Assembly: GCA_041670385.1 (NCBI GenBank)
Contig: JBAXZI010000003.1
Coordinates: 1,618-65,617 of the forward strand
DNA length: 64,000 nucleotides
Origin: Clostridia bacterium
GTDB taxonomy: Bacteria > Bacillota > Clostridia > Christensenellales > DTU072
Direction: 5' to 3'
Part shown: positions 1 through 44,000 of the stretch, piece after piece
How the letters are laid out: the number at the start of each line of letters is the position of its first letter
Numbering within the stretch: the first letter of the stretch is position 1
The notes under the pieces: generated by a model
Databases searched by the model: none
What the model was told of the DNA's origin: nothing
Seen by the model: only the letters and a program-made list of their open reading frames with translations
Program-made: the position numbers and the translations under genes

Positions 1-937
1 TAGAAAGTGATAAGCCAAGTCCAGCCAATTTCTCGATAACTTCATCTAGAGATTTACGACCAAGGTTACGTACCTTCAACATATCATCTTCGCTTCTCTT
101 AACAAGTTCTTCAAGTGTATCTATTCCTGCTCTTTTTAAGCAGTTAAGTGGGCGAACTGACAAATCAAGTTCTTCAATACTTTTTTGCAAACTTTTTTCC
201 ATCTTGTCTTCATCTTTACTAACTAGAATATCCAAATCATTCATATCATCAATTATAAACAATTTCAAATGATCACTCATTACTTTAGCGGCCAAACTTA
301 GTACTTCTTTTGGTGAAGTAGTAGCATTGGTTTCTACAGTAATAGTAAGTTTATCATAATCAATAGATTGCTCTACTCTAGTTGCTTCAACTGTATAATT
401 TGCAGAAATAACTGGTGAGAATAATGAATCAATTGATATATAACCTATTGGAGCAGATAATGGCTTATTGTTAACGCTATTTACATAACCTCTGCCAATA
501 CCTATAGTTAATTCTATTTCCAATTCATAACCATCTTCTAATGTACAAATGAAAGCATTAGGATTCTTGATTTCAATTTCTGAAGTTAGTGCAATATCCG
601 AAGCTGTTACTACACCGCCCTCTTTTTTAGTAAGTTTTACAACTTGCTTAAAATCAAGGTCATCTGTATTATATGCTTTTACTGCTACATCTTTAAGATT
701 AAGGATAATCTCTGCAACATCTTCTTTTACACCAGGTATTGTACTAAATTCATGTTTTACACCATCAATTCTGATACCTACAATTGCAGCACCAGGAAGT
801 GCGGTACACAAAACTCTACGTAAGCTGTTGCCGATAGTAGTTCCGTATCCTCTTTCTAGCGGTTCGATGACAAAACTGGCTTTCGCCTCATTTGCACCCT
901 CTATTTCTGTAATTTTTGGTTTTACTATTTCTATCAT
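1..937 (-). CDS. rpoA: DNA-directed RNA polymerase subunit alpha (C-terminal end lies beyond window edge)
   Basis: Minus-strand frame is open from position 2 to the ATG at 937-935, with AGGAGG 10 nt upstream. Translation starts MIEIVKPKITEIEG and reaches ...LGRKSLDEVIEKLAGLGLSLS at the edge (alpha CTD). Absent from the ORF track because there is no stop inside the window. It sits after rpsD as in the alpha operon. Confidence 0.95.
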   Translation of the reverse strand, partial: MIEIVKPKITEIEGANEAKASFVIEPLERGYGTTIGNSLRRVLCTALPGAAIVGIRIDGVKHEFSTIPGVKEDVAEIILNLKDVAVKAYNTDDLDFKQVVKLTKKEGGVVTASDIALTSEIEIKNPNAFICTLEDGYELEIELTIGIGRGYVNSVNNKPLSAPIGYISIDSLFSPVISANYTVEATRVEQSIDYDKLTITVETNATTSPKEVLSLAAKVMSDHLKLFIIDDMNDLDILVSKDEDKMEKSLQKSIEELDLSVRPLNCLKRAGIDTLEELVKRSEDDMLKVRNLGRKSLDEVIEKLAGLGLSLS

Positions 938-967
938 TTTAGGCAATCCTCCTATTTGGCTGTTGTA

Positions 968-1099
968 TTATTTAGAATACAACTCAATGATCATATGCTC
1001 TGCGATAGACATATCAACGTCTTCACGTGTTGGCATAGTTAGTACTGTTCCTTTTAGTTCTTCGGGATTGAATTCCAACCATTTAAAACGGTTGTTAAT
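968..1099 (-). other. rpsD: In-frame continuation of rpsD after the internal TAG: 43 sense codons plus TAA encoding the conserved S4 C-terminus
   Basis: Hand translation in the same frame as 1100..1591 gives INNRFKWLEFNPEELKGTVLTMPTREDVDMSIAEHMIIELYSK then TAA (970-968). This matches the canonical S4 C-terminal segment (...EYL.FD.EKLEGT..R.P.R.E....INE.LIVE.YS.). Confidence 0.85.
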
Positions 1100-1591
1100 C
1101 TATGCACCCTTTAATTCTTTAAAGAATGGAAGATCTTTCTTGTTGTCCTTAACAGCAACAACATCACCTGCTTTGATTAAATAAGAAGGGATATCCACTT
1201 TATTACCATTAATGGTAATATGACCGTGATTTACTAATTGTCTAGCTTGTGCACGGCTGATACCGATACCCATTCTATAAATTACATTGTCCAATCTTCT
1301 TTCTAATAGAATCAACATATTTTCACCGACAATACCACGTAATTTTTCTGCCATTAGATAATATCTGTGGAATTGCTTTTCAGTCAAACCATAAATTCTC
1401 TTTGCCTTTTGTTTTTCACGTAATTGCTGACAATAAGCTGATTGTTTTTTTCTTGAAACACCATGTTCACCAGGTGCTACTGGTCTTTTGTTCATTACAC
1501 ATTTCTCAGAATAACATTTGTCACCCTTCAAAAATAGTTTACATCCCTCTCTTCTGCAGAGACGGCAATCTGGTCCTGTATATTTAGCCAT
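1100..1591 (-). CDS. rpsD: 30S ribosomal protein S4, first 163 codons, terminated by an in-frame TAG at 1102-1100
   Basis: [26 protein letters not shown]... has the S4 N-terminal zinc-type motif and S4 RNA-binding domain ([31 protein letters not shown]). At 163 aa it is about 45 aa short of normal S4. Confidence 0.93.
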
Positions 1592-1610
1592 ATTTACTTA
1601 CTCCTCCTAA

Positions 1611-2010: not shown

Positions 2011-2379
2011 CTATTTTTTTGAACGACTAACGGTACGTTTTGGTCCTTTACGTGTACGAGCATTTTGTTTGGTACTTTGTCCTCTTACAGGCAAACCCTT
2101 TCTATGTCTTACACCTCTGTATGAACCAATTTCCATTAGTCTCTTAATATCTAACATTACATTTCTTCTCAAGTCACCTTCAACTGTTAAGTTGTTTTCG
2201 ATGTATTCACGAATAGATGCAACTTGACTTTCGGTAAGATCCTTAACTCTAATATCTGAATTGACATTTGTAGCTGCAAGTATTTTGTTACTTGTAACTA
2301 AGCCAATACCATAGATATAGGTTAATCCAATCTCTACTCTTTTTTCACGGGGTAAATCTACACCTGCTATACGAGCCAT
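2011..2379 (-). CDS. rpsM: 30S ribosomal protein S13
   Basis: [14 protein letters not shown]... Start moved to the second Met (ATG 2379-2377) because GGAGG lies 5 nt upstream. The track's upstream ATG lies inside that SD. Confidence 0.95.
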
Positions 2380-2550
2380 TAAAACCTCCAAATTTTTTAT
2401 TATCTTTAATATATCTTAATCAATGAAGTAAACTATCGCTTATTTTTTCACCTTTTGGTCATAAAATTAGGATAATTCAGCCGCCTCCATATTTGAATTC
2501 TATATTTACATTAGTTTAGCTAAAATATCTAACTAATCACTAGCTAAAAT

Positions 2551-2579
2551 ATTATAGCACAAACTTGTTTTGTTTGCAA
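2551..2579 (-). promoter_or_regulatory. Sigma-70-type promoter for rpsM-rpsK-rpsD-rpoA (TTGCAA-17 nt-TATAAT)
   Basis: Minus strand reads TTGCAA ACAAAACAAGTTTGTGC TATAAT, inside an unusually long (about 190 nt) rpmJ-rpsM spacer. Confidence 0.6.
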
Positions 2580-2584
2580 TTATT

Positions 2585-2701
2585 TTAGCCTTGTCTTTGT
2601 TTATGTTTAGCATATTTTGAACAAATTACCATAACTTTGCCATTTCTTTTGATAACTTTACACTTGTCACACATTGGCTTAACTGATGGTCTTACTTTCA
2701 T
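2585..2701 (-). CDS. rpmJ: 50S ribosomal protein L36
   Basis: Hand-found 38-aa [41 protein letters not shown], below the ORF-track cutoff. Canonical L36 sequence and position after infA. Confidence 0.95.
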
Positions 2702-2743
2702 TTTCTTATTCCTCCATAAGTTTTTTATATTTATTTATATAAT

Positions 2744-2965
2744 CTAACCTCTATTACGATAGGTTATTCTTCCCTTATTAAGATCATAAGGACTCATTTC
2801 TACTTTTACTTTGTCGCCTACGCATACTCTTACAGTATGTTGGCGCATTTTCCCACATAAATATGCTGTAATCATATGATCATTGGTCAACTTTACTCGG
2901 AAATTTGTTCCTGGTAAAACTTCTTCAATTACACCCTCTACTTCAATTACATCTTGCTTAGACAT
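2744..2965 (-). CDS. infA: Translation initiation factor IF-1
   Basis: 73 aa, [26 protein letters not shown]..., S1-like fold signature. Confidence 0.96.
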
Positions 2966-3255
2966 TAAAGACCTCCATTTTGAGAATCGTACTTGCGCAA
3001 GGCACTGTACACTTCTGCGTCATAGATTAATTTAGAATTAATCATCTTTTCTGCTAAATTTACAATCACATCGCCATTATATTGCAAATGTTTAACATTT
3101 TTAGTTTTGGGTTTAATTAATTTATGCAAATCTCCATCTACTATTTTTACAAATTTAGTGCCAACCAATTCTACTACTAGAAAATAATTGGTTTGATCTC
3201 TACCTGCATCGCTTAATACCACAGAACCGATTTGTAATGGTTTCATAATATTCAT
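2965..3255 (-). CDS. KOW-domain RNA-binding protein (small protein found between map and infA in Clostridia-type operons)
   Basis: 96 aa. [20 protein letters not shown] resembles a KOW motif. Conserved operon position. Assignment from memory of the family. Confidence 0.7.
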
Positions 3256-3260
3256 TTTTA

Positions 3261-4007
3261 TTATAAAGTTATTATTTCCGCCCTGTCAGATAATATGATA
3301 ACTGTGTTTTCATAATGCGCTGACGGACTTTTGTCGATAGTTGCTATTGTCCAACCATCATTATACTGCTCTATTTCATAATTACCTAATGTAATCATAG
3401 GCTCTATAGCTATTGTCATATTCTTCCACAATCGACTGCCTCTTCCCTTTATACCATAATTAGGCACATTAGGATCTTCGTGGACTGTTTCACCAATTCC
3501 GTGACCAACCAAATCTCTTACTACTCCAAAACCAAAACTTTCTACATATTTTTGGATAGTAAATCCAAGATCGCCTAGTCTAGTCCCTTCTTTAAGAACC
3601 TTAACACCCTCAAAGAAACTTTGTTTACACACGTCCATCAATTGCTTTTTTTCTTTACTAACATTGCCTATAGCAACGGTTCTTGCTGCATCGGTGTGAA
3701 CTCCTTCAAGTCCTGCACCACAATCAATTTTTAATAGCATACCTTCTTCCAAAATTATTTTCTTACTAGGAATTCCGTGTACAACTTGCTCATCTATTGA
3801 CGCACAAATTGTGGCTGGGAAACCATCATAATTAAGAAAACTAGGTACGGCTCCTTGACTAGTGATATACTCATAAGCTAATTTATCTAGCTCCCAAGTA
3901 TTTACACCTATTTTTGCATTTTCTTCAATAAGTTTGAGTGTATCACCCAAAATCTTACCTGCTTTACGCATAGAATCTAATTGCTTATTATTTTTTATTG
4001 TAACCAT
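3261..4007 (-). CDS. map: Type I methionine aminopeptidase
   Basis: 248 aa. Has the MRKAGKI, HGIP, D..ID and HGIGE...H.P metal-ligand pattern. Confidence 0.95.
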   Translation of the reverse strand: MVTIKNNKQLDSMRKAGKILGDTLKLIEENAKIGVNTWELDKLAYEYITSQGAVPSFLNYDGFPATICASIDEQVVHGIPSKKIILEEGMLLKIDCGAGLEGVHTDAARTVAIGNVSKEKKQLMDVCKQSFFEGVKVLKEGTRLGDLGFTIQKYVESFGFGVVRDLVGHGIGETVHEDPNVPNYGIKGRGSRLWKNMTIAIEPMITLGNYEIEQYNDGWTIATIDKSPSAHYENTVIILSDRAEIITL

Positions 4008-4617
4008 TTAATATAACCTTCACTTGTTCAAATGTATCATCAATGGATTTATTGCCATCGACATCTACTAGTTTTCCCAAATTGCGGTAATAATCTATCA
4101 ATGGTGCTGTTTGATCTTTATAAACTTCCAATCTCTTAACCACCGTTTCTTCATTATCATCAGCTCTTTGATATAATTTTGCTCCGCATTTTGAACAAGT
4201 ATCTTTTTTATATGTACTTGTATGATAGCTTTCGCCACAAGGACACATTCTTCTTCCACTAATTCTACCTGCAATAACATCAAAATCAACTACAATATTA
4301 ATAACATAGTCAATATCTGTTAATTTGCCAAGAGCATCGGCTTGTGCAACTGTACGAGGAAAGCCATCTAGCAATATGCCATTAACACAATCATCTTGTT
4401 TGATGCGATCAGCAACAATGCCGACAACTACATCATCAGGGACAAGTTGACCTTTGTCAATAAACGCTTTTGCAAACTTTCCTAGTTCTGTTCCATTTTT
4501 TATGTTACTACGCAAAGCATCACCGGTAGAAATATGGACAAAGCCATATTCCTTTGCGAGTTTAGTCGCTTGTGATCCTTTACCTGCACCGGGTGCTCCC
4601 AACAATATTATTTTCAT
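3988..4617 (-). CDS. adk: Adenylate kinase (zinc-lid type)
   Basis: MKIILLGAPGAGKGSQA P-loop. Lid has CPCG...CSKCG. Confidence 0.96.
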   Translation of the reverse strand: MKIILLGAPGAGKGSQATKLAKEYGFVHISTGDALRSNIKNGTELGKFAKAFIDKGQLVPDDVVVGIVADRIKQDDCVNGILLDGFPRTVAQADALGKLTDIDYVINIVVDFDVIAGRISGRRMCPCGESYHTSTYKKDTCSKCGAKLYQRADDNEETVVKRLEVYKDQTAPLIDYYRNLGKLVDVDGNKSIDDTFEQVKVILNGYNKK

Positions 4618-4618
4618 T

Positions 4619-5962
4619 TTACTTCAAAAATCCTTTATTTGTCTTTACTAATATTTGTGATTCTAATTGCTTTTCAAATTCTAATGCTACGCTTACAAGG
4701 ATTATTAATCCTGTCGCACTAAATGCACTACTAAACCCTAATGCCTCAAAACCTTTTATACTTGTAAGAATAACAGTTGGTATCAATGATACAAGTGCTA
4801 AGAACAATGCACCAAATAAAGTGATACGATTGTTGATTTTACGCAAATGATCACTAGTTGATTTACCTGGTCTAATACCTGGGATAAATCCACCATTTTG
4901 TTGTACCATTTTTGATACATCATCTGGATTGAATTGTATTTGTGAATAAAAGTAAGCAAAGAATATGATTAATATAAACATAAACAATGGATACATATAT
5001 CCGCCTACACCCATCCATTTATACCAGAATGTTGTAAAGCCATTTGTCTTACCTACAAATTCCATTATCATTTGTGGGAACATAATCAAACTACTAGCAA
5101 AAATGATTGGCATAACACCGCCCGAATTTACTTTTAAAGGAATATAAGTAGTCTGTCCACCATACATCTTGTTACCTTTGATTCTCTTTGCATATTGAAC
5201 AGTAATTCTTCTTTCACTTAGGTCAACAAATACAATTAGGAAGAACAACAATACAACTAGAATTATAAATCCAAATAAATACCAAATACCGGTTAGGTCA
5301 CCTGATTTTACTTGTTGTGGAATGACATTAAATAAAGCTAGCCAAATTTTGTTACCCAAACTTGATAGAATACCGATAAAGATAATAAGTGAGGTACCAT
5401 TACCAACACCAAATTCGGTTATTCTTTCACCTAGCCACATTACCAATGCACTACCACCAGTAAGTATAACAACTATACTAATCATTGTAAATATTGTATT
5501 TACACTCGTCGTTGAACTTGCTCCTGCTGATCCAAATACACCAGTGATACTGCCTTTCCAACTCAACATAACTCCGACTGCTTGTATAACTGCTAATAAT
5601 ATAGCAACATAACGGATATATTGATTTATTTTCTTTCTACCTTCTTCGCCATCTTTACTCAATTTTTCAAGTTTTGGAATTACAAGAGTTAGTAATTGCA
5701 TAATAATGAAACTGTTGATGAACGGTATAATACCTAAAGCGAACAAAGTACCATTCTGTAGAGAACCACCAGTTATCATACTCATCATTGCCATGATGTC
5801 ATAATTACTACCGGAAGTACTCTGTCCGAATGTCGTTACTAAGTTTAAACCAGGAATTGGCACAAAACAACCAATTCTATATATCAAAATGATAAATAGA
5901 GTGTAGAATATTTTTCTGCGAATATCTGGCGCCTTAAAGGCGTTTCTGAATGTTTTAAACAT
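4619..5962 (-). CDS. secY: Preprotein translocase subunit SecY
   Basis: 447 aa polytopic membrane protein in the spc operon position. Confidence 0.96.
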   Translation of the reverse strand: MFKTFRNAFKAPDIRRKIFYTLFIILIYRIGCFVPIPGLNLVTTFGQSTSGSNYDIMAMMSMITGGSLQNGTLFALGIIPFINSFIIMQLLTLVIPKLEKLSKDGEEGRKKINQYIRYVAILLAVIQAVGVMLSWKGSITGVFGSAGASSTTSVNTIFTMISIVVILTGGSALVMWLGERITEFGVGNGTSLIIFIGILSSLGNKIWLALFNVIPQQVKSGDLTGIWYLFGFIILVVLLFFLIVFVDLSERRITVQYAKRIKGNKMYGGQTTYIPLKVNSGGVMPIIFASSLIMFPQMIMEFVGKTNGFTTFWYKWMGVGGYMYPLFMFILIIFFAYFYSQIQFNPDDVSKMVQQNGGFIPGIRPGKSTSDHLRKINNRITLFGALFLALVSLIPTVILTSIKGFEALGFSSAFSATGLIILVSVALEFEKQLESQILVKTNKGFLK

Positions 5963-6417
5963 TATAGAACCTCTACTTTACCGCCTGCCTTTTCAATTTT
6001 CTCTTGAGCGGATTTTGTGATTTTATTAGTTTTAATAGTTAGCTTTTTGGTTATTTCGCCATCTCCCAAAACTTTTAGACCATACTCTTCAATCTTACTT
6101 AAGATTCCACTCATAAGTAATAGTTCTGCTGTAACAACTGTGTCGTTCTCAAAAACTTCTAAAGAGCTAACATTTACTGTAGAATATACTTTCTTAAATT
6201 GAGCGTTTTTAAACCCTCTTTTTGGTAATCTACGGGTTAATGGCATTTGACCACCTTCAAAACCGATTCTAACTCCACCGCCACTACGAGCATTTTGCCC
6301 TTTATGACCTTTACCTGAAGTTTTTCCAGTTCCTGATCCAATACCTCTACCTAATCTTTTTTCTTTTTTAGTAGCACCTTCTGCTGGTGCAATAGTATGT
6401 AATTTCATATCTGACAT
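5962..6417 (-). CDS. rplO: 50S ribosomal protein L15
   Basis: ...[38 protein letters not shown]. Start uncertain (ATG at 6426, 6417 or 6408). 6417 has the best SD spacing. Confidence 0.93.
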
Positions 6418-6434
6418 CTTTAACATACCTCCAA

Positions 6435-6614
6435 TTATACTTCTTCTGTTTTTACAAGATGAGACACCTTGAAAACCATACCACGAGTAACAGCATCATC
6501 TTCTCTTACAACACTTTGTCCAATCTTTCTTAGTCCAAGTGCTTGAATATTTGCTTTTTGGTTCTTTAAGCGACCAATTGTGGATTTCATTAATGTTATC
6601 TTAATTTTAGCCAT
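6435..6614 (-). CDS. rpmD: 50S ribosomal protein L30
   Basis: Hand-found 59-aa [62 protein letters not shown], one residue below the track cutoff. Confidence 0.95.
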
Positions 6615-6627
6615 TTATATAATCCTC

Positions 6628-7140
6628 CTAGTCAACCAAATTTGATACTGGTATACCACGCATTTTAGCAATTTCTTCTGCCGTGCGCATTTGTTTTAAT
6701 CCTTCAACCGTTGCTTTTACGCAATTTATAGGATTATTGCTTCCAATACTTTTTGTACGAACATCTTTAATTCCAGTTGTTTCCAATACAGCTCTTACAG
6801 CACCGCCTGCAATAACTCCGGTACCTTGTTCAGCTGGCATAATAATTACTTCGCCTCTGCCATACACACCTTTAACAGCGTGTGGAACAGTATTGTCTTT
6901 GATTGAAAAAGTTATCATACTTTTCTTTGCTTCTTTTGTTGCTTTCTCGATAGCTTCAGGTACTTCTTTAGCTTTCCCTAAACCGTATCCAACTTGATTA
7001 GCACCGTCACCAACAACTACTAAAGCAGCAAAACGCATTGTTCTACCACCCTTAACAACTTTGGTTACACGGTTGATAGATACTGTCTTTTTGATTAAGT
7101 TATCTTTTGGCTCTCTGCTATATTTATCGTTTCTTGCCAT
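6628..7140 (-). CDS. rpsE: 30S ribosomal protein S5
   Basis: 170 aa, ...[24 protein letters not shown]... Confidence 0.97.
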
Positions 7141-7149
7141 TTTGCCCTC

Positions 7150-7518
7150 CTAAAATTCCAAACCAGCTTCTCTAGCAGCTTCTGCAAGTGCTTGTATACG
7201 ACCAGTGTAATGATAACCACCTCTATCGAATACGACTTCTTTAACACCAGCTTTGATTGCTCTTTCAGCTACTAGTTGACCAACTACTTTACTTGAATCC
7301 ACTTTGTTCATATTTGCAATTTTTGCAATTACGTCTTTCTCCATAGTGTTGGCACTTGCTATAGTAGTTCCGTTTGTATCATCTATTACTTGCGCATAGA
7401 TGTTGGAAAGTGACCTATAAACATTTAGACGGGGAGTTTGTAAAGTTCCGCTAATCTTAAAACGCATACGATAGTGTCTTTTACTTCTTACTTTATTTTT
7501 ATCTAATTTATTAATCAT
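7150..7518 (-). CDS. rplR: 50S ribosomal protein L18
   Basis: 122 aa ending ...[13 protein letters not shown]. Confidence 0.97.
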
Positions 7519-7529
7519 ACTACGCTCCT

Positions 7530-8072
7530 TTATTTACCTGCTTTCTTTCCTTCTTTTCGAACGATGACTTCATCTTTATAATGAATACCATAGCCATGGT
7601 ATGGTTCGGGTTTACGTATTGCTCTTATGTTTGCAGCAGTTTGCCCAACCAACTCTTTGCTAATACCTTTTACAGTAATTTCAGTAAGTGAAGGAGTTGC
7701 AAATTTTATACCTTCTGGGGCTATCACGTCTACCTTATGTGAAAAACCTACATTAAGTACAAGATTCTGTCCTTCTAATAATACTTTATAACCTACACCG
7801 GCAATAACTAATTCTTTTTGAAAACCATCAGTTACACCCTTTACCATATTAGCTATTAATACACGATATAAACCATGAGCTGCTTTATTAACTTTTTGTT
7901 CATTATCTCTAGTAACTAATACTTGTTTATCAACAATTTCTACTTTTATGTTTTTATTTTCAATAACTTGTGATAATGTTCCTAACTTACCATTGACAGT
8001 CACTAAATTGTCATTAATAGTAACAGTAACACCATCAATAATATCTATTGGTAATCTTCCTATTCTTGACAT
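7530..8072 (-). CDS. rplF: 50S ribosomal protein L6
   Basis: 180 aa, [11 protein letters not shown]... Confidence 0.97.
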
Positions 8073-8081
8073 TGTTACCTC

Positions 8082-8486
8082 CTACCAAATATAAGCGAGA
8101 ACTTCGCCACCAGCTCCGGTTAAACGGGCTGTTCTGTCGGTCATTACACCCTTAGAAGTTGAGATAATAGCGATACCTAAACCATTAAGAACTTTTGGTA
8201 ATTCATCGCTCTTAGCATATACTCTAAGACCTGGTTTAGATATTCTCTTAATACCAGTAATAACCTTGCTATAATTTGCACCATATTTCAATTCAACTAA
8301 AATAGTATCTTGGACACCATTTTCGTCTTCAATTCTTTTAGCGCTCTTTATATATCCTTCCTCAACCAAAATATCAGCAATTGCCATTTTTATTTTAGAT
8401 GCAGGAATTTTTACTAATTCATGTTTTGCAGTTAAAGCGTTCCTGATACGAGTTAGCATATCTGCAATTGGATCTGTCATAGCCAT
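8082..8486 (-). CDS. rpsH: 30S ribosomal protein S8
   Basis: 134 aa, [17 protein letters not shown]... ending AYIW. Confidence 0.97.
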
Positions 8487-8501
8487 TTTAATTCCTCCTG
8501 T

Positions 8502-8687
8502 TTACCAGCTCGCTTTCTTTACGCCAGGTATTTGACCTTTATAGGCCAATTCTCTGAAACATATTCTGCAAATACCGTATTTTTTTAGAACTGCATGGGG
8601 TCTTCCACATATAGCACATCTTGTATAACCTCTTGTGGAATACTTAGGAGTTCTTTGTTGCTTATTAATCATTGCTTTCTTTGCCAT
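8502..8687 (-). CDS. rpsZ: 30S ribosomal protein S14, type Z (zinc-binding)
   Basis: 61 aa with CAICGRP...CRICFRE. Confidence 0.96.
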
Positions 8688-8702
8688 AGTTCGGTTTACC
8701 TC

Positions 8703-9257
8703 CTATTTAGCAAAAGGCATTCCGAGTTGCACGAACAATTCTTTTGCCTCTTCGTCTGTTTTTGCGGTTGTGATTAATGCTATATCAAAACCTCTTACTT
8801 TTTCTATCTCATCATAACTAATTTCTGGGAACATTAGTTGTTCTTTGATACCTAATGAATAATTACCTCTGCCATCAAAAGCATTTGCATTTACACCTTT
8901 AAAGTCACGTATACGAGGTATTGCAATAGTAACTAATTTGTCATAGAAGTTCCACATTCTTTCGCCTCTAAGTGTTATTTTTGCACCTACTACCATACCT
9001 TCTCTTACTTTAAAATTAGCTACTGATTTTTTAGCTTTTGTAAGAACAGCTTTTTGTCCAGCAATTAATTCAAGTTCATGAACGGAAGTTTGGATACTCT
9101 TTGCATTATCCTTAACATCACCCAATCGCATATTTAATACGATTTTATCCATTTTAGGAACTTGCATAACGTTTTTATATCCAAATGTTTTTGATAGAGC
9201 TGGTATTACCTCTGTTTTATAACGTTCTTTTAGTCTGTTTGAATAACTTTCAGCCAT
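8703..9257 (-). CDS. rplE: 50S ribosomal protein L5
   Basis: 184 aa, ...[14 protein letters not shown]... Confidence 0.97.
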
Positions 9258-9271
9258 TTTATAATACCTCC

Positions 9272-9928
9272 CTATTCTTTAACTTCATTTTCAGAAGTTG
9301 CCTTCTTTGTTGTTGCTGTTGTTGTTTTTTTAGCAACAGGCTTTTTTACTGTAGAAGTTGTTTTGCTTGCTGTAGCTGGCTTTTTTGCTGTAGCCGTAGC
9401 TGGTTTTTTAGCGGTTGTTGTTTTCTTAACTTCTGCTTTTACTTCTGCTACTGGTGCTGCCACTACTTCTGCTTTTGCATCTGCTACTGGTGCTGCCACT
9501 ATTTCTACATTTTCTTCTACATTAGCTTCAATTGGAGCTTCAGTAGTTTCTGTCTTTTTTCTTCTAACAGTAGTTGACTTTTTCTTTTCTTCTTTAGTTG
9601 CAACTTTCTTAGTTTCCAAAATTGCACCACATTCGCACATACGAACTTTTTTGCCATCTACTATAGAGTGTTTAATTCTTGTGGTTTTTCCACAAGTTGC
9701 ACAAACTGGCATAACGTTACTTACTGCAACACTTTTTGGTATATCAATAATTCCGCTTGCATCGCTTGCTTTTTTAGCTTTAATAGATTTCTTAACTACT
9801 GCAATGTTTTTGCCTTCAAGGTAAACTCTATTTTTATCAATGTCTACTTTAATAACTTTAGCCATTTTACCTTTATCTTGACCTGCAATAATTTTTACAA
9901 AATCACCTTTTACTACATTCATTTTCAT
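9272..9928 (-). CDS. rplX: 50S ribosomal protein L24 with about 110-aa Lys/Ala/Thr-rich C-terminal extension
   Basis: N-terminal KOW ([16 protein letters not shown]) and Cys4 ribbon (CATCG...CECG) form a normal L24 of about 105 aa. A low-complexity repeat tail follows (218 aa total). Confidence 0.93.
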
Positions 9929-9940
9929 ATTAATAACCTC

Positions 9941-10309
9941 CTAAAGAACTTCTGGAGCCAAAGATATAATTTTCATATAATCTCTTTCTCTCAATTCTCT
10001 TGCGATAGGCCCAAAAATACGAGTTCCACGAGGTAATTTTTGGTTATCTATAATAACAGCAGCATTGTCATCAAATCTAATGTGACTACCGTCAGTTCTC
10101 ATAATACCTTTTCTGGTTCTTACGATAACTGCTCTAATTACATCACCTTTCTTAACGGAGCCGCCGCTAGTAGCAGATTTTACTGATGCAACAATTACAT
10201 CACCAATATTTCCGCTTCTTACATATGAACCACCCATAACTCTGATGCACATAATTTCTTTTGCTCCAGAATTGTCGGCTACTTTCAATCTTGTTTGTGG
10301 TTGTACCAT
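9941..10309 (-). CDS. rplN: 50S ribosomal protein L14
   Basis: 122 aa, [18 protein letters not shown]... Confidence 0.97.
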
Positions 10310-10324
10310 TTTATCCGATTCCTC

Positions 10325-10582
10325 CTATTTAGCTTCTCTAATTACGGCACTCAATCTCCAGCACTTATCCTTAGATATAGGTCTGGTCTCGATAATTTCT
10401 ACCATATCACCAATTTTACATTGGTTTAGTTCATCGTGAGCTTTGAATTTTTTTGTTCTAGTAATATACTTTTTATATAAAGGATGTTTTACTTTACTAA
10501 CAACAGCTACCACAATGGTCTTATCCATTTTATCGCTGGTTACTAAGCCAACTCTGGTCTTCCTCAAATTTCTTTCTGCCAT
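10325..10582 (-). CDS. rpsQ: 30S ribosomal protein S17
   Basis: 85 aa, ...[18 protein letters not shown]... Confidence 0.97.
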
Positions 10583-10595
10583 CTTTTATATTCTC

Positions 10596-10844
10596 CTATT
10601 TCTTTACAGCACTAGTTTTAGTGCTTTTTTTAGTCTTAGCAGGTTCAAAACTAATTCCAAGTTCACGTTGACGAAGAATGGTTTTTACTTTTGCGATATC
10701 TTTCTTGCATACTACAATAACATTGGCATTAGGAAGTTGATTTGTAGAATGTTTAAAACGTAGATTAAATAATTCTGCCTTTAACTCATTTAATTTTGCA
10801 TTGAGTTCTTGGGTATTTAATTCAAAATATGTTGTCTTTTTCAT
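10596..10844 (-). CDS. rpmC: 50S ribosomal protein L29 (about 15-20 aa basic C-terminal extension)
   Basis: 82 aa, ...ELNAKLNELKAELFNLRFKHSTNQL... Confidence 0.94.
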   Translation of the reverse strand: MKKTTYFELNTQELNAKLNELKAELFNLRFKHSTNQLPNANVIVVCKKDIAKVKTILRQRELGISFEPAKTKKSTKTSAVKK

Positions 10845-11281
10845 TATTTATCACTACCCTCCTTTGTTATCATATCTTCTTTTTTTACAAATTTACACTT
10901 AATTGGCAATTTATGAGCTGCCAAACGCAAAGCTTCTCTTGCATCTTCTTCACTTACACCAGCCATTTCAAATAAAACTCTATTAGGTTTTACTACTGCT
11001 ACCCAATATTCTGGTGAACCTTTACCACTACCCATTCTAGTTTCTGCAGGTTTTTTGGTAATTGGTTTGTGTGGGAAAATATCAATCCATACTTTACCGC
11101 CACGCTTAATATATCTAGTCATCGCAACACGGGCTGCTTCAATTTGATTAGCTGTAATCCAACTTGGTTCTGTAGCTACTAACGCGAATTCACCGTAAGC
11201 AATTACATTTCCTTTGTTGGCTTTGCCTTTCATTCTACCTCTATGTTGTTTTCTTCTTTTTACTCTTTTAGGCATTAACAT
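10844..11281 (-). CDS. rplP: 50S ribosomal protein L16
   Basis: [19 protein letters not shown]... Confidence 0.97.
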
Positions 11282-11283
11282 AA

Positions 11284-11943
11284 TTAGTCATTACCTCCAT
11301 TTACTTGCTTGATGAAAACTTCGCCTTTATAAATCCAAACTTTTACACCAATTATTCCATAAGTAGTTTTTGCTTCAGCAAAACCATAATCAATATCCGC
11401 TCTCAAAGTATGAAGTGGAATACTACCTTCATTGTAATGTTCACTTCTTGCTATTTCAGCTCCGTCCAAACGTCCAGAAACCATAGTTTTGATTCCCTTT
11501 GCTCCGCCTTTCATAGCTCTTGTAATACCTTGACGCATAGCTCTTCTAAATTGAATTCTCTTTTCTAAAGATTGTGCAATAGATTCTGCTACTAATTGTG
11601 CTTCAGTATCAACTTTTTTAACTTCCATTATATTAAGATTCACTACTTTGTTAACAGCTATCTTTTGAATGTCTTTTGTGATATTAGCAATATTATTTGC
11701 ATCTTTACCACCAATAGCAACACCAGGTCTACCGCAAAACATATTAACTGTTACAGTATTGGCTGCTCTTTCAATAACAATTTTAGAAATTGCTGCATTG
11801 TTATATTTACTTTTAAGACTTTCACGGATTTTGTAGTCCTCAGATATTAACTTTCCAAAATTCTTTTTTTCAGCATACCATTGACTATCCCAGCCCTTAA
11901 TAACTCCTACTCTTAAACCATGTGGATTAACTTTTTGACCCAT
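11284..11943 (-). CDS. rpsC: 30S ribosomal protein S3
   Basis: [20 protein letters not shown]... Confidence 0.97.
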
Positions 11944-11952
11944 TTTATCCTC

Positions 11953-12345
11953 CTACTTCTTAGCTACTGAATCTAGTATTACAGTGATGTGACTTGTACG
12001 TTTTAACAAACCACCTGCTCTACCGTGTGCCTTAGGAATAAATCTCTTTAATGTGGCACCTTGGTCTGCAAAACATTCTGCAACAAACAATTCATCAATG
12101 TTCATTCCAAGATTTGTTTCTGCATTTGCTCCAGCACTCTTAACTACTTTCAAAATAGGAAGTGAGCTTGACTTGTTTAAATTTTCTAATATATAAACTG
12201 CTTCTTTATAGCCCTTTCCACGAATTACATCTAATACTGCTCTTACTTTATAAGGAGAAATACGAATGTACTTTGCCTTAGCTCTTGGACGCCTATCAGC
12301 GTTTTCAGCTCTTTTAACAGCCTTTGCATAAATATTCTTAGCCAT
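11953..12345 (-). CDS. rplV: 50S ribosomal protein L22
   Basis: 130 aa, ...AKYIRISPYKVRAVLDVIRGK... Confidence 0.96.
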   Translation of the reverse strand: MAKNIYAKAVKRAENADRRPRAKAKYIRISPYKVRAVLDVIRGKGYKEAVYILENLNKSSSLPILKVVKSAGANAETNLGMNIDELFVAECFADQGATLKRFIPKAHGRAGGLLKRTSHITVILDSVAKK

Positions 12346-12359
12346 TACTTTACCTCCTA

Positions 12360-12635
12360 TTATTTTGAAGTGGTTTTGCTACCAGCGTGTCCCCTAAAGG
12401 TTCTGGTAGGTGCAAACTCACCTAATTTAAATCCAACCATATCCTCAGTAACATATACTGGTACATGTTTTCTACCATCGTGAACTGCAATTGTATGTCC
12501 TACAAATTCAGGATAAATAGTGGATGCTCTTGACCAAGTCTTAATTGGTCTTTTCTCACCTGACTCATTCATAGCAAGAACTTTCTTCTTTAAGCTCTCA
12601 TGTATATAAGGGCCTTTCTTTATAGATCTACTCAT
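12360..12635 (-). CDS. rpsS: 30S ribosomal protein S19
   Basis: [15 protein letters not shown]... Confidence 0.97.
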
Positions 12636-12649
12636 TTAGTTATGTCCTC

Positions 12650-13477
12650 CTAATTAATACGCTTAATGATAAACTTGCTAGAAGTCTTTTTCTTCTTACG
12701 AGTCTTATAACCAAGTGTAGGTTTACCCCAAGGTGTAACTGGTCCTGGCATTCCGATAGGACTCTTACCTTCACCACCACCATGTGGGTGATCACAAGGA
12801 TTCATAGCTACGCCTCTAACTGTTGGTCTAACGCCCATATGTCTTTTTCTTCCGGCTTTGCCTAAACTAACGATTTCGTGGTCAACATTGCCCACTTGAC
12901 CGATAGTAGCTTTGCAAGCTAATGGTACATATCTCATTTCACCACTTGGCATACGAAGAGTGGCTTTACCATTCTCTTTAGCCATTAATTGTGCACTTGT
13001 TCCAGCACTTCTAGCGATTTGACCACCATGTTTAGGTTGTAACTCAATATTATGGATTACTGTACCTACTGGAATATCGATAAGCTTCAAGCAGTTACCT
13101 GCTTTGATATCACATTCAGCTCCACTTAATACTTTGTCGCCAACTGTTAATCCCAAAGGTGCTAAGATATATCTCTTTTCGCCATCAGCATATATCAAAA
13201 GAGCAATATTTGCTGAACGATTAGGGTCATATTCTATAGAATCAACTCTTGCAGGGATATCGTCCTTATTACGCTTAAAATCGATAATACGATATTTTTG
13301 TCTATTTCCACCACCAATATGTCTTACTGTAATTCTACCTTTCGCATTTCTACCACCACTATGATTCTTACTTTCTAGTAAGCTTCTTTCTGGAGTAGTG
13401 CGAGTAACTTCTGAAAAGTCAGAAACTGTATAGAACCTACGAGCAGGACTGGTTGGTTTACTTCTCTTTATACCCAT
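12650..13477 (-). CDS. rplB: 50S ribosomal protein L2
   Basis: 275 aa, ...[19 protein letters not shown]... Confidence 0.97.
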
Positions 13478-13491
13478 TGTGACCTCCTAAA

Positions 13492-13782
13492 TTATGACAA
13501 GCTTTCGAAAAATTCGATTGCTTTACTATCTTGTGTTAGTGTTACATAAGCTTTCTTATAAGAAGCCCTTCTACCAGAAGTTTTTCCCATTTTCTTAATT
13601 TTTCCACTATAATTAACAACATTTACTTTAGAAACAGTTACTTCGAATATCTTTTCTACTGCTGCCTTAATTTGAGTTTTTGTAGCATTCTTAACAACCA
13701 TAAAAGTATATTTTTTATCACCAATACCACTGTAACTTTTTTCACTCAAGACTGGCTTGATTATCACATCATAATTATTCAT
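13492..13782 (-). CDS. rplW: 50S ribosomal protein L23
   Basis: 96 aa. Operon position and ...YDVIIKPVLSEKS... Confidence 0.96.
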   Translation of the reverse strand: MNNYDVIIKPVLSEKSYSGIGDKKYTFMVVKNATKTQIKAAVEKIFEVTVSKVNVVNYSGKIKKMGKTSGRRASYKKAYVTLTQDSKAIEFFESLS

Positions 13783-14402
13783 TATTCTGCTACCTCCTCT
13801 AAGCTAGTTATAGCATCTTTAGTAATAAATACTTTACCTGCTCTAACAAGTTGGTATACGCTTACTAAGTTAATTGTCTCAACTTCAGCTTCTGCCAAAT
13901 TCTTAGTACATCTAACTACTACTTCATCATAAGCGTCAAGTACAAACAAAGCTTTCTTACCAGCGTTTAGGTTGGTACAAATTCTTGCCATTTCTTTAGT
14001 CTTAACTTCTTTGATTGCTACGCTATCCAAAACAACTAATTCATCTTGTCTAATCTTTTGGCTTAATGCACTATAGAAAGCATTAAGTTTCATTCTCTTG
14101 TTGATTTTCTTAGAGAAATCCCTAGGTTTTGGTGCGAATACAACTCCACCATGACGCCATTGTGGACTACGAGTACTACCTTGACGAGCACGGCCAGTAC
14201 CTTTTTGTCTCCAAGGTTTTATTCCACCACCACTTACTTCTGTACGAGTAAGAGCGCTTTTTGTACCTTGTCTCTTGTTTGCTAATTGAGCAGTTATTAC
14301 TTGATGAATAAGCGCTTCATTATAAGCAACCTCAAATATTTCAGGCTTTAAAGCAATTTTTCCAACTTCTTTACCTTCTATATTGTAAACTTTCAAATCC
14401 AT
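13782..14402 (-). CDS. rplD: 50S ribosomal protein L4
   Basis: 206 aa, ...SGGGIKPWRQKGTGRARQGS... Confidence 0.97.
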   Translation of the reverse strand: MDLKVYNIEGKEVGKIALKPEIFEVAYNEALIHQVITAQLANKRQGTKSALTRTEVSGGGIKPWRQKGTGRARQGSTRSPQWRHGGVVFAPKPRDFSKKINKRMKLNAFYSALSQKIRQDELVVLDSVAIKEVKTKEMARICTNLNAGKKALFVLDAYDEVVVRCTKNLAEAEVETINLVSVYQLVRAGKVFITKDAITSLEEVAE

Positions 14403-14417
14403 TTAAATATATCCTCC

Positions 14418-15035
14418 CTATGCCTTCACTTCAACTAGGCAACCTTTAGGACCAGGAATTCCGCCTTTGATTAGCAACAAGTTGCGTGCTTCGTCAACTC
14501 TGACAACTTCTAAGTTCTTAACAGTTACTCTTTCGTTACCATAATGACCTGACATATGTTTATTTTTGAAAACTCTACTTGGATCAGAAGATGAACCCAT
14601 ACTACCTACACCACGATGATAGCCACTACCATGTGCTTTAGGTCCAATATGTTGATTCCATCTATATATTGCTCCAGTAAATCCTCTACCTCTTGTTTTT
14701 CCAGCTACTACTACCATGTCACCAACTGCAAAATCTTTAACTGTTATTTTTGAACCAAGTTCAAATTTTGAACAGTCATCGAAACGGAATTCTCTCAAAA
14801 ATCTTTGAGGAACTGCATCTGCTTTTTTATAATGACTAGCAATAGGTTTGGTTACGTTCTTTATTTTAATATCGCCAAACGAAATTTGCACTGAATCATA
14901 ACCTTCTTTAGCAACTGTCTTTTTCTGAATAACGGTACAAGGACCAGCTTCAACAACAGTTACAGAAATCATATGACCATCTGCAGTAAATATTTGGCTC
15001 ATACCTAATTTTTTGCCTAAAATAGCTTTATTCAT
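14418..15035 (-). CDS. rplC: 50S ribosomal protein L3
   Basis: 205 aa, MNKAILGKKLGMSQIF... Confidence 0.97.
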   Translation of the reverse strand: MNKAILGKKLGMSQIFTADGHMISVTVVEAGPCTVIQKKTVAKEGYDSVQISFGDIKIKNVTKPIASHYKKADAVPQRFLREFRFDDCSKFELGSKITVKDFAVGDMVVVAGKTRGRGFTGAIYRWNQHIGPKAHGSGYHRGVGSMGSSSDPSRVFKNKHMSGHYGNERVTVKNLEVVRVDEARNLLLIKGGIPGPKGCLVEVKA

Positions 15036-24204: not shown

Positions 24205-24960
24205 TTATACAAACTTTAATACTAAAGCTACCAAAAAAACACCGAGAACAACCAATGCTAAAAAGGAAGCAATAAGTAATACTTTAATAATTGGGTTCTT
24301 CTTATCCCCTTTTTTCGTAGAATATGGACTAATTGACATTGAAGCAATAAGTTCTTTTTCCATTTCTTCCGTGCATTCAACAAAATTTTCTGGCAATTTA
24401 TCTTCCGGATAAAGCAAATAAAATGCGGGTGCGGAACTATGGTCAAGTATCTTAGTATCTTTGTCTTCTTTCATAAGACTAAAAAACATTATAATATCGC
24501 CAGCACCACCGCTAACCATAAAGCAAAATAGTAATACCATAAATATGTTACCAAAAATAGTGCAAATTATAAGTGGTATAATTCCCGTTATAACAACAGG
24601 TAATAAAAGCACAAAACGGTATTGTGACACCTTCATTGCTTTGCTTAAATGGCAATAGAATAAGCCTTGCTTCAAATTCATACCAAACTTTATATCCTTA
24701 GTGCTTAATTTGCCAGCAATTATTCCACCTAAAGCGTGTAACAATTCGTGCAAAACAACACCAAATACCAAACCAACAAGCACAATAAGTATATCCCAAT
24801 ATACTTTACCGGTTAGTAGCAATTTATTATTAAGTGCAAAAATATTTATACTTCCGCAAATTATCAATGGCACAATAAACATAACAAGTGACATTGTCGC
24901 AAATAGATTAATATTAAATTTTTTTAATTCTTTTTTGTAATTCATATAGTTATTGTACAA
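24205..24960 (-). CDS. Polytopic membrane protein with HExxH motif (DUF3267-like putative zinc peptidase)
   Basis: 251 aa with several TM segments and HELLHALGG. Confidence 0.6.
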   Translation of the reverse strand: MYNNYMNYKKELKKFNINLFATMSLVMFIVPLIICGSINIFALNNKLLLTGKVYWDILIVLVGLVFGVVLHELLHALGGIIAGKLSTKDIKFGMNLKQGLFYCHLSKAMKVSQYRFVLLLPVVITGIIPLIICTIFGNIFMVLLFCFMVSGGAGDIIMFFSLMKEDKDTKILDHSSAPAFYLLYPEDKLPENFVECTEEMEKELIASMSISPYSTKKGDKKNPIIKVLLIASFLALVVLGVFLVALVLKFV

Positions 24961-24995
24961 GTACCAATGAAATTTGTCAAATGCTATTGCCCTTT

Positions 24996-41063: not shown

Positions 41064-44000
41064 TTATGAATCAATAAATAAATCTCTTGTACTTGCTACA
41101 TTTATTACATAATGTTGAAGAAAAGTACTATACTGCGTTTTTACAGCTTGAACAATATATGGTCCAGTTGGTGATAAATTTCTAGTAACATTACTTTTAA
41201 CTAAGATTACTCTTTCATCATTAAAATTGCTCCAAATATTGGGCACATAACCATTCAAACCAGCTTCATCAAACGATTCTAATCCCGCAAATAAAGCATC
41301 ACCAATTATACTATCATCTATCCCCGTACAACTATCTACATATATAGGCATATAATCCATTCTATTAGCTAGTACATAACAAATAAAATCATTGATTTCT
41401 CTTTGACTTGTTAGCCACAAATTTTGTTTAATTCCTTTCCAAATAAAAGTACTACTAAGCATATCCACATCACTCGCATTATTATATCCTTCTGTATTAG
41501 CATTAGTATTCAAAAAAGTATTATCCGTAAGTTTGTTATACAAATCATTATCTACACAAATCAAAGTTTCTACATCAGAACGGATATTATCCACTATAGC
41601 ATAAACTCGTGTTTCACTATTTATTGTTGGAGAATATGTATAAGTATTCGTAGTACCGCTAGTTACACATACATCATTAATGTACCAATCTATAACTTGA
41701 TATGTATTACAATTAGGCAACAAATTAGCTGTAAAAGTAACATTAGTCGTTGTCCCATCTATTTGTAAAACACTATTATCGGGCACAATTTCTACATTTT
41801 CTATAGATGCAGACAAAATCCAAGTCGCTGTAAATGTTACATTTTTAGTAATTATATAACTATCACCTTCAGCATATAAAGTTGTTCCATCAGACCAACC
41901 GCCAAAATTATGATATTCATATGTAAATGAATTATTTATTAAAATGTAATTTGCATTCTCATATTGGTAGGCTATTATAGGGTCATCACCTACTCCGCCA
42001 CCATTGTTGTATGTTATTGTGAATTTTATATCTTCTTCCCAAATTGCCGTAAACACTACATTATCGCCAATTGTAAACACATCATCTACATTATAAATAG
42101 TTACACCATCGGTCCATCCTACAAATTTATGATTTTCATAAATAAAAGGGTTTTCAATCAATGTAATTAGAGAATCTTCAAATTGATTAGGGATAATAGG
42201 TGCAGTGCCGTCACCTTCTCCGCTAATATATGATACTGTATATTTATCTGCCTCTTGTCTAGAATTAAGCATTATTTTTAATGCAGGGGCCATACCACCT
42301 TCACAACTGTCAATTACTAAACTTCCCTTATTGCCATTTACCATAATATAATCAACTGTTTTACTTCCGCTATAATCAGGCGAACGCAAATACCACCAAC
42401 CCTTTTTATAATAGTCGGAGTCTGTATCGTTGTTCATAAACCCGCCCTTAATATATCCATAATCGCTAATTTGCTTTTGTCTAAGTATATCATTATAATT
42501 AACAACGCTTGAAAAACCATAATCACTATTTATAATATCATCTTTATCTAGCAAATAAATATTATCACTTACATCAGTTTCTGTTTGATTTGTTACTATC
42601 AAGCGACTTTGCATATTATTAAATGCTAAATTATAGAAATCATCGTTCAAATATTCCCTATAATCGCTATACTTCCAATTATTCGCAAAGTTGTTTTCAT
42701 CTTCATCATCTTTTGTCGTAAAATATTCATTACTATTTGCCAATTCATCATTATTGATGTCTATCCATTCATAATTTGTTTTATTAACAAAAGCACCATT
42801 GTCAATAATGTTTTCACATAAAATTAATGCTTCGCCATCATCAATTGAAAGGATTCTCCATTTTATTGGTTCTACCTTAAAATAATAGATATTTCCATTT
42901 ACTATTTCATTTCCGTCAAAATCAATTGTGGATTTTGCATTTACCAAATATAAATTCGCAACAATTTTTACATATTCGCAATCGTCGGAACCTACATAAT
43001 AGCCATTAGCATTTACTTCATTTGTCGATATGCTAACTTCACTTGCTTTCAATGACTGAGGATAAGTACCAAAATACAAATAATCGCCATCTTCACTTAC
43101 ATTATTATTGTTATCAACTCTAACATATTGGTCGGCAATATTGCCAAGTAAAGTAGGTTCTTCCCATTTAGCAAATATTAATATATTACTAATTGTACCA
43201 GAATCTATTGTCGCAATTGGTTTTGTAAAAGAACTATCTTCATACCACCCCTCAAAATTGCCGGGATTATAAATTTTGTTATCTTTCAAAATAATACCGT
43301 TAGTAGGATTTTTTAATTCAATATTATCTGCTACAGTAAATATTGTTGGATTATTTTCACTATTTGTTCCGCCATTTAGACAATAAGTAATATTATAAGC
43401 TATTAAATTTCCGCCCAAATATAAATCTAAATTTCCTGTTTTACCACTATCAATTTTTGTAATTATTTCTGTCTTTTTTACATCGCCATACCATTGATAA
43501 ATATTATCAGAAAAACCGTCTAACACCTCACCTGTAGGTATTATGAATACATATTCTTCATCTTCTATTGTATAATTTGTCTTTAGTATGTTTGGATTTT
43601 CGGTTTCTTCCATTCCATATACTAAATGATAATTTATATCATACTCAACAACTTCCCACTTTGCATATAACTCTAAATTGCCAATATCTCCCGATATTAT
43701 ATTCAATACTTCATTTTCAAAGCCAGCCTCACTGAACCAACCTAAAAATGCGTATCCACTTTTTTCAGGTACAGCAAATGTTATATTATCTTCAATAGTA
43801 TAAATATTAGGATTTTTAGTGTTTTCAATACCATCCATATTATTATAAACTATCGAATATTCAATAGGCGTCCCTCCTAAATAAATATCCAACTCTCCGA
43901 AAGTACCTTTCGTTATCTCAGTAATTTCTTCTTTTTCGCCATCAGTGAATACAAACCATTTATAATTATTATCCTGATAACCTTCTATTGCCTCAACAGA

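Follow-up and report, generated by a model that had tools for sequence, protein, structure and literature searches.

The rpsD gene (ribosomal protein S4) of a Christensenellales-like metagenome-assembled genome (MAG) is interrupted in the deposited sequence by an in-frame TAG at codon 164, with the conserved C-terminus of S4 still encoded downstream in the same frame. We consider it probable, at roughly 55%, that the TAG is a consensus artefact or an unfixed variant and not the gene that is used by the living population. Nothing here supports a new genetic-code event.

The window, the whole stretch of DNA that was analysed, is 64,000 nucleotides in length and corresponds to C3:1618-65617 of a 2.04-Mb MAG (G000; 140 contigs, 30.4% GC) that is rated 93% complete and 2.4% contaminated. 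Placement in the Clostridia, Christensenellales, is based on the names attached to the nearest S4 homologues. Three sequencing runs were found, and the organism was present only in X1, a landfill metagenome from 2018, which was examined in the form of Logan contigs.

In the explanation that we favour, rpsD would be an ordinary, functional, single-copy gene of 207 codons, and one consensus base (plus-strand position 1102) would turn the AAG of Lys164 into TAG. Either the base would have been introduced by a technical or consensus error, or it would belong to a rare, deleterious variant that is not fixed and that comes from a low-abundance, strain-mixed population with very thin coverage. We infer that the base at 1102 is wrong or unrepresentative.

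The rpsD frame and its conserved tail

The whole rpsD frame occupies window positions 1591-968 of the minus strand, with an ATG start at 1591-1589. It lies in an alpha operon with the order rpsM-rpsK-rpsD-rpoA, which is the same in contig L021 of the nearest relative. The features of this region are:

1603..1608, minus strand: Shine-Dalgarno sequence of rpsD (AGGAGG), 11 nt ahead of the ATG, identified by inspection of the sequence
1103..1591, minus strand: rpsD codons 1-163, encoding a Zn-ribbon-type N-terminus, the S4 N-terminal domain and the S4 RNA-binding domain
1100..1102, minus strand: in-frame TAG at rpsD codon 164 (CTA on the plus strand)
971..1099, minus strand: rpsD tail of 43 in-frame codons, encoding the conserved S4 C-terminus (part of the S4-S5 interface)
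968..970, minus strand: canonical TAA, the stop codon of full-length rpsD
2..937, minus strand: rpoA, the next gene of the alpha operon, which runs off the window edge

With the TAG as a stop, a product of 163 instead of 207 residues is predicted, without the last 44. The 43 sense codons that follow the TAG translate as INNRFKWLEFNPEELKGTVLTMPTREDVDMSIAEHMIIELYSK, and a read-through product, in which the TAG is counted as a residue, is 207 amino acids in length. Ribosomal_S4 (PF00163) was matched at residues 3-97 (115.6 bits) and the S4 domain (PF01479) at residues 98-145 (73.9 bits), both above the curated Pfam cut-offs, and residues 1-207 of the product align to residues 1-209 of Thermus thermophilus S4 (1fjg_D) with an E value of 1.9e-67. 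The frame, the Pfam matches and the structure alignment confirm exactly what had been claimed in the sequence-only reading, namely an rpsD with an in-frame TAG, a conserved tail of 43 codons and a read-through product of 207 amino acids.

The gene resembles the bacterial uS4 of the alpha operon in its two Pfam domains, its end-to-end collinearity with solved structures, its gene order and a Cys-rich N-terminus, which is also found in the relatives. It differs in that the frame, uninterrupted in uS4, is broken in the deposited sequence by one TAG at the codon of the conserved Lys164. No second copy of rpsD was found in the MAG (93% complete). The downstream rpoA is preceded by a separate AGGAGG (953-948) and so does not require ribosomes that complete rpsD for its translation.

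Comparison of rpsD across sister genomes, which had been proposed as a check, found an internal stop in none of 38 relatives. Codon 164 specifies lysine in all 18 of the same-genus relatives that were aligned, with AAA and AAG about equally frequent. In the nearest relative found anywhere (P0001/L021; 88% amino-acid identity), the codon is AAG, so a single A>T change on the coding strand, at plus-strand position 1102, is enough to produce TAG. On the basis of this alignment, the TAG is shown to be a one-base difference from a conserved lysine codon. Codons 1-163 encode a protein segment with 70-88% identity to the S4 of the relatives.

A search of 5.8 billion proteins returned neither a stop nor a truncation of rpsD among the best 120 homologues, nearly all of which are about 207 amino acids in length (a few are 189-213). 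The only entry of 163 amino acids among them is the protein of the window itself, present on one contig. The same search found no S4 of the same species elsewhere, that is, nothing closer than 88% identity, and the locus did not turn up a second time in exact-pattern scans of metagenome and genome contig collections in which the variable base was set to N.

The tail is identical to that of the nearest relative at 41 of 43 positions. Between the window and L021, dN is 0.020 and dS 1.38 for the tail (codons 165-207), compared with 0.072 and 1.20 for the head (codons 1-163), and the tail is thus more constrained than the head. All aligned relatives finish ...ELYSK at the same place as the full-length rpsD of the window. 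Judged from the presence of all 19 of the 19 family-invariant tail residues, the tail is not a chance open frame and, as measured by these substitution rates, it is shown to be under intact purifying selection, with no decay. The dN and dS values and the retained invariant residues indicate that the tail has been translated for essentially the whole divergence, with no time spent as dead sequence. A stop ahead of an undecayed tail would have to be very recent, unreal or read through.

UAG as a terminator and other in-frame stops in the MAG

Among 1,090 long, high-scoring open reading frames (ORFs) in the MAG, 820 end in TAA (75%), 172 in TAG (16%) and 98 in TGA. TAG terminates 14 of the 29 complete genes of the ribosomal-protein cluster (window 2011-15035), in each case at a normal C-terminus, in agreement with the earlier claim that TAG is a genuine stop in the genes neighbouring rpsD. 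At ten of these 14 genes the sequence is TAGGAG, in which the stop forms the first three bases of the next Shine-Dalgarno sequence; the local excess of TAG is attributable to this fusion of the stop with the Shine-Dalgarno sequence of the following gene. Release factor 1 (RF1, prfA) is intact, with a score of 483 bits against a cut-off of 423. The sequence-only reading had judged a genome-wide reassignment of TAG to be unlikely, and the ORF stop counts, the cluster stops and RF1 support that judgement. We rejected reassignment and RF1 loss on the grounds that RF1 is intact, that TAG is a common terminator and that only two in-frame TAGs occur in the MAG compared with four in-frame TAAs.

Besides RF1, the MAG encodes two more release-factor-like ORFs (C51:4470-5438 and C29:12353-13348). 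The ORF on C29 is an open frame of 366 amino acids that scores 284 bits to the RF1 model; it is presumably RF2, apparently without the usual internal frameshift. A third, more distant release-factor paralogue has 342 amino acids and scores 144 bits.

A tRNA with a CUA anticodon, the presence of which had been suggested as a test of suppression, was not found among the 39 tRNAs of the MAG (Aragorn, default settings). At a threshold of 85%, Aragorn reported 165 'tRNAs', including one 'tRNA-Pyl(cta)' at C12:30210-30298. We regard this match as spurious owing to its 25.8% GC content, its poor stems and its position antisense inside an ORF of 1,566 codons. PylS is absent from the MAG, as the best match to TIGR02367 scores 25.6 bits against a cut-off of 178 and the sub-threshold matches are other class II synthetases. 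Pyrrolysine decoding of UAG therefore fails on both PylS and the CUA tRNA, and the MAG is without any TAG-decoding machinery. Like the systems that read UAG as sense by means of pyrrolysine or after RF1 loss, this genome has a conserved gene whose frame contains a TAG, in this case in place of a lysine codon; unlike them, it has neither pylS nor tRNA-CUA, it retains RF1, and TAG is an ordinary stop genome-wide. Programmed read-through is not supported either: the stop occurs in none of the 38 relatives and in none of the 120 best homologues, and no stimulatory RNA structure was found after the TAG (fold z -0.34).

We scanned the MAG for other interrupted genes using a six-frame dicodon score, and candidates were then checked by Pfam and against relatives. 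The scan gave 114 candidates, the majority of which turned out to be neighbouring genes that share a frame, and six real in-frame stops were left, including that of rpsD, the sole housekeeping gene affected. Four are TAA and two are TAG, which is the pattern of random nonsense in AT-rich DNA and is not specific to TAG. The other five are:

C7:27348-27350 (L033 about 1906-1908): TAG in the gene for a 191-aa protein with HTH, CxxC/CC zinc-ribbon and SOR-like domains
C7:1357-1359 and C7:4351-4353 (L028): two TAAs in one gene for an RCC1 / Listeria-Bacteroides-repeat surface protein
C74:7379-7381 (L029 980-982): TAA in the gene for a small NERD protein with a membrane anchor, at a position within the Pfam NERD domain
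Window 41064-41066, minus strand: TAA between a surface protein of 1,117 codons and 316 further codons

The scan for further conserved genes with an in-frame TAG, another check put forward earlier, thus yielded one gene, that at C7:27348, but this gene looks to be decaying, as conserved His residues have also been lost. Seven relatives are uninterrupted and have Pro, Asp or Glu at the stop position, and in G000 the conserved His residues are replaced (DHPM..HY to DC(stop)M..SY). The two TAAs on C7 split a very large surface protein gene into 452, 997 and 138 codons. These and the TAA on C74 are reproduced exactly in X1 contigs and are therefore real DNA; the three stops, all in accessory genes, are ordinary pseudogene lesions. 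Pfam matches a transglutaminase-like core (37 bits) in the 316 codons beyond the TAA at 41064-41066. This TAA is not covered by X1, in which a contig begins exactly at 41067, a possible sign that the sequence branches or varies at this base.

Sequencing evidence and the origin of the TAG

The organism is thinly represented in X1. The share of window words found in that run is 0.64 near rpsD and 0.40 over 10 kb, and the organism occurs there as fragments of 150-900 nt with a word depth of about 3-4. No X1 contig of the organism lies over window positions 683-1125, and the TAG is thus neither confirmed nor contradicted by X1; a run search that used the TAG site alone matched no run. Over the approximately 17 kb that is covered, about seven sites distinguish the X1 contigs from the MAG; three are synonymous, two conservative and one intergenic. 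They lie at:

Window 7129, 24703-24961, 26651 and 30988: sites that differ between X1 and the MAG, four of them clustered in one contig of 260 nt

These differences indicate that closely related strains coexist in the landfill sample and are collapsed into one consensus, and also that the MAG cannot be equated with the majority sequence of X1. We rejected the general description of the MAG as a low-quality, single-read assembly, for which raw error rates would predict dozens of nonsense codons over the thinly covered half; only about six were observed, three of which are verified.

The sequence-only reading had named three options, an error, a real nonsense allele, and suppression or programmed read-through, and had not decided among them. 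Our preference for an artefact or unfixed variant over a real allele rests on several observations. The gene is single-copy and essential, no truncated homologue was found and the tail is unrelaxed; moreover, the site is without solid-word support and belongs to a thinly covered, strain-mixed population. Weighing against an artefact, consensus substitution errors are uncommon in Illumina data, and the three stops verified in X1 indicate that a nonsense codon in this assembly often reflects the actual DNA.

It is possible, though less likely than an artefact or unfixed variant, that the nonsense allele is both real and predominant. S4 would then have 163 residues, and ribosomes would assemble but would be error-prone, as with ram-type rpsD truncations. 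The 44 residues lost belong to the part of domain 1 that contacts S5, and the mutation would have arisen very recently and may have been selected because it counterbalances a hyper-accurate S12. Classically, ram alleles arise as compensators of restrictive S12. The S12 gene, rpsL, is absent by both tblastn and PF00164 from the MAG, which does contain a complete S10-spc-alpha cluster; presumably, the str operon was left unassembled or unbinned. Truncated S4 is viable in E. coli rpsD12, whose frameshift shortens the C-terminus and abolishes contacts between S4 and S5 (PMC3964911), and in Streptococcus pneumoniae rpsD delta K201-L203, a three-residue C-terminal deletion with a strong ram phenotype (PMC3175624). 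If real, the allele described here would share with these two the loss of the C-terminal S4-S5 interface segment. However, those alleles were selected in the laboratory and are a frameshift and a three-residue deletion, whereas this is a nonsense codon in an environmental MAG, seen as sequence alone and with the S12 partner gene unassembled. Its loss of 44 residues would stand at the extreme of, or beyond, the truncations documented in the papers cited here.

The viability of S4 C-terminal truncations means that essentiality is no ground on which to dismiss a real allele and, together with the nonsense codons confirmed in independent X1 contigs, it keeps this reading alive. Polarity need not be lethal either, given that rpoA has its own Shine-Dalgarno sequence. 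Against a real allele stand the lack of a truncated rpsD in any relative or database homologue examined, the entirely unrelaxed tail and the position of the TAG outside the X1 contigs. We consider it unlikely that an uncultured landfill Christensenellales population with S4 truncated at residue 163 and constitutively error-prone ribosomes represents a natural, predominant allele of the ram type. If it did, the allele might compensate a restrictive or aminoglycoside-resistant S12, and the error-prone ribosomes might make the other nonsense lesions of the genome more tolerable. If it were confirmed to predominate, it would be one of the rare cases in nature of S4 truncation of the ram type, in which it could be asked whether bacteria in the wild ever give up translational accuracy in return for something else.

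Much less probable is a real TAG that is read through to give full-length S4, whether by a suppressor tRNA encoded in the missing 7% of the MAG, by a near-cognate tRNA (Gln, Lys or Tyr) or in a programmed manner. Read-through would explain the conserved in-frame tail, the MAG is only 93% complete, and a second in-frame TAG does occur in a conserved gene (C7:27348-27350), but that gene has also lost conserved His residues and is apparently decaying. The option of a suppressor tRNA or programmed read-through, left open by the sequence-only reading, fares poorly against the absence of a CUA tRNA and PylS, the intact RF1, the termination of 172 of 1,090 long ORFs and 14 genes of the ribosomal-protein cluster by TAG, the random-nonsense pattern of the in-frame stops in the MAG, a stop that is unconserved in relatives and the lack of structure behind it. 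On the numbers, the further suggestion that a truncated, ram-like S4 might promote read-through of its own stop carries little weight. The E. coli rpsD12 allele raises the misreading of UAA and UAG by tRNA-Tyr only to about 6e-4, and near-cognate read-through does not exceed about 1e-3 even when a ram allele is present (PMC3866648), which is far too low for a stoichiometric ribosomal protein.

We give almost no weight to a split S4, in which an N-terminal piece of 163 amino acids would assemble in trans with a separately initiated peptide of 43 amino acids or fewer, produced, for example, by re-initiation directly behind the TAG. Such an arrangement would fit the conserved tail, and a weak AAGGG lies upstream of the ATT that follows the TAG. 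However, the junction lacks a canonical start codon; an ATG, GTG or TTG is reached only eight codons into the tail and has no Shine-Dalgarno sequence, and the aligned relatives have no such arrangement. We know of no precedent for a split S4.

If the base at 1102 is an error or a stray variant, as we favour, the locus would illustrate that an essential gene can contain a lone nonsense codon in a MAG with low coverage and mixed strains, and that annotation pipelines then report a truncated S4.

Other features of the ribosomal-protein region

Apart from rpsD, the genes that the window shares with L021 have matching lengths, except for a longer L24 in the window. This rplX (window 9272-9928, minus strand) encodes 218 amino acids, about twice the usual length, compared with 181 in the nearest relative, and the extra part is a Lys/Glu-rich C-terminal extension. 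L29 (rpmC; 82 amino acids) also has a long basic tail. Between map and infA lies an ORF of 96 amino acids (window 2965-3255, minus strand) that has no Pfam match; its position and length (97 amino acids) are conserved in L021.
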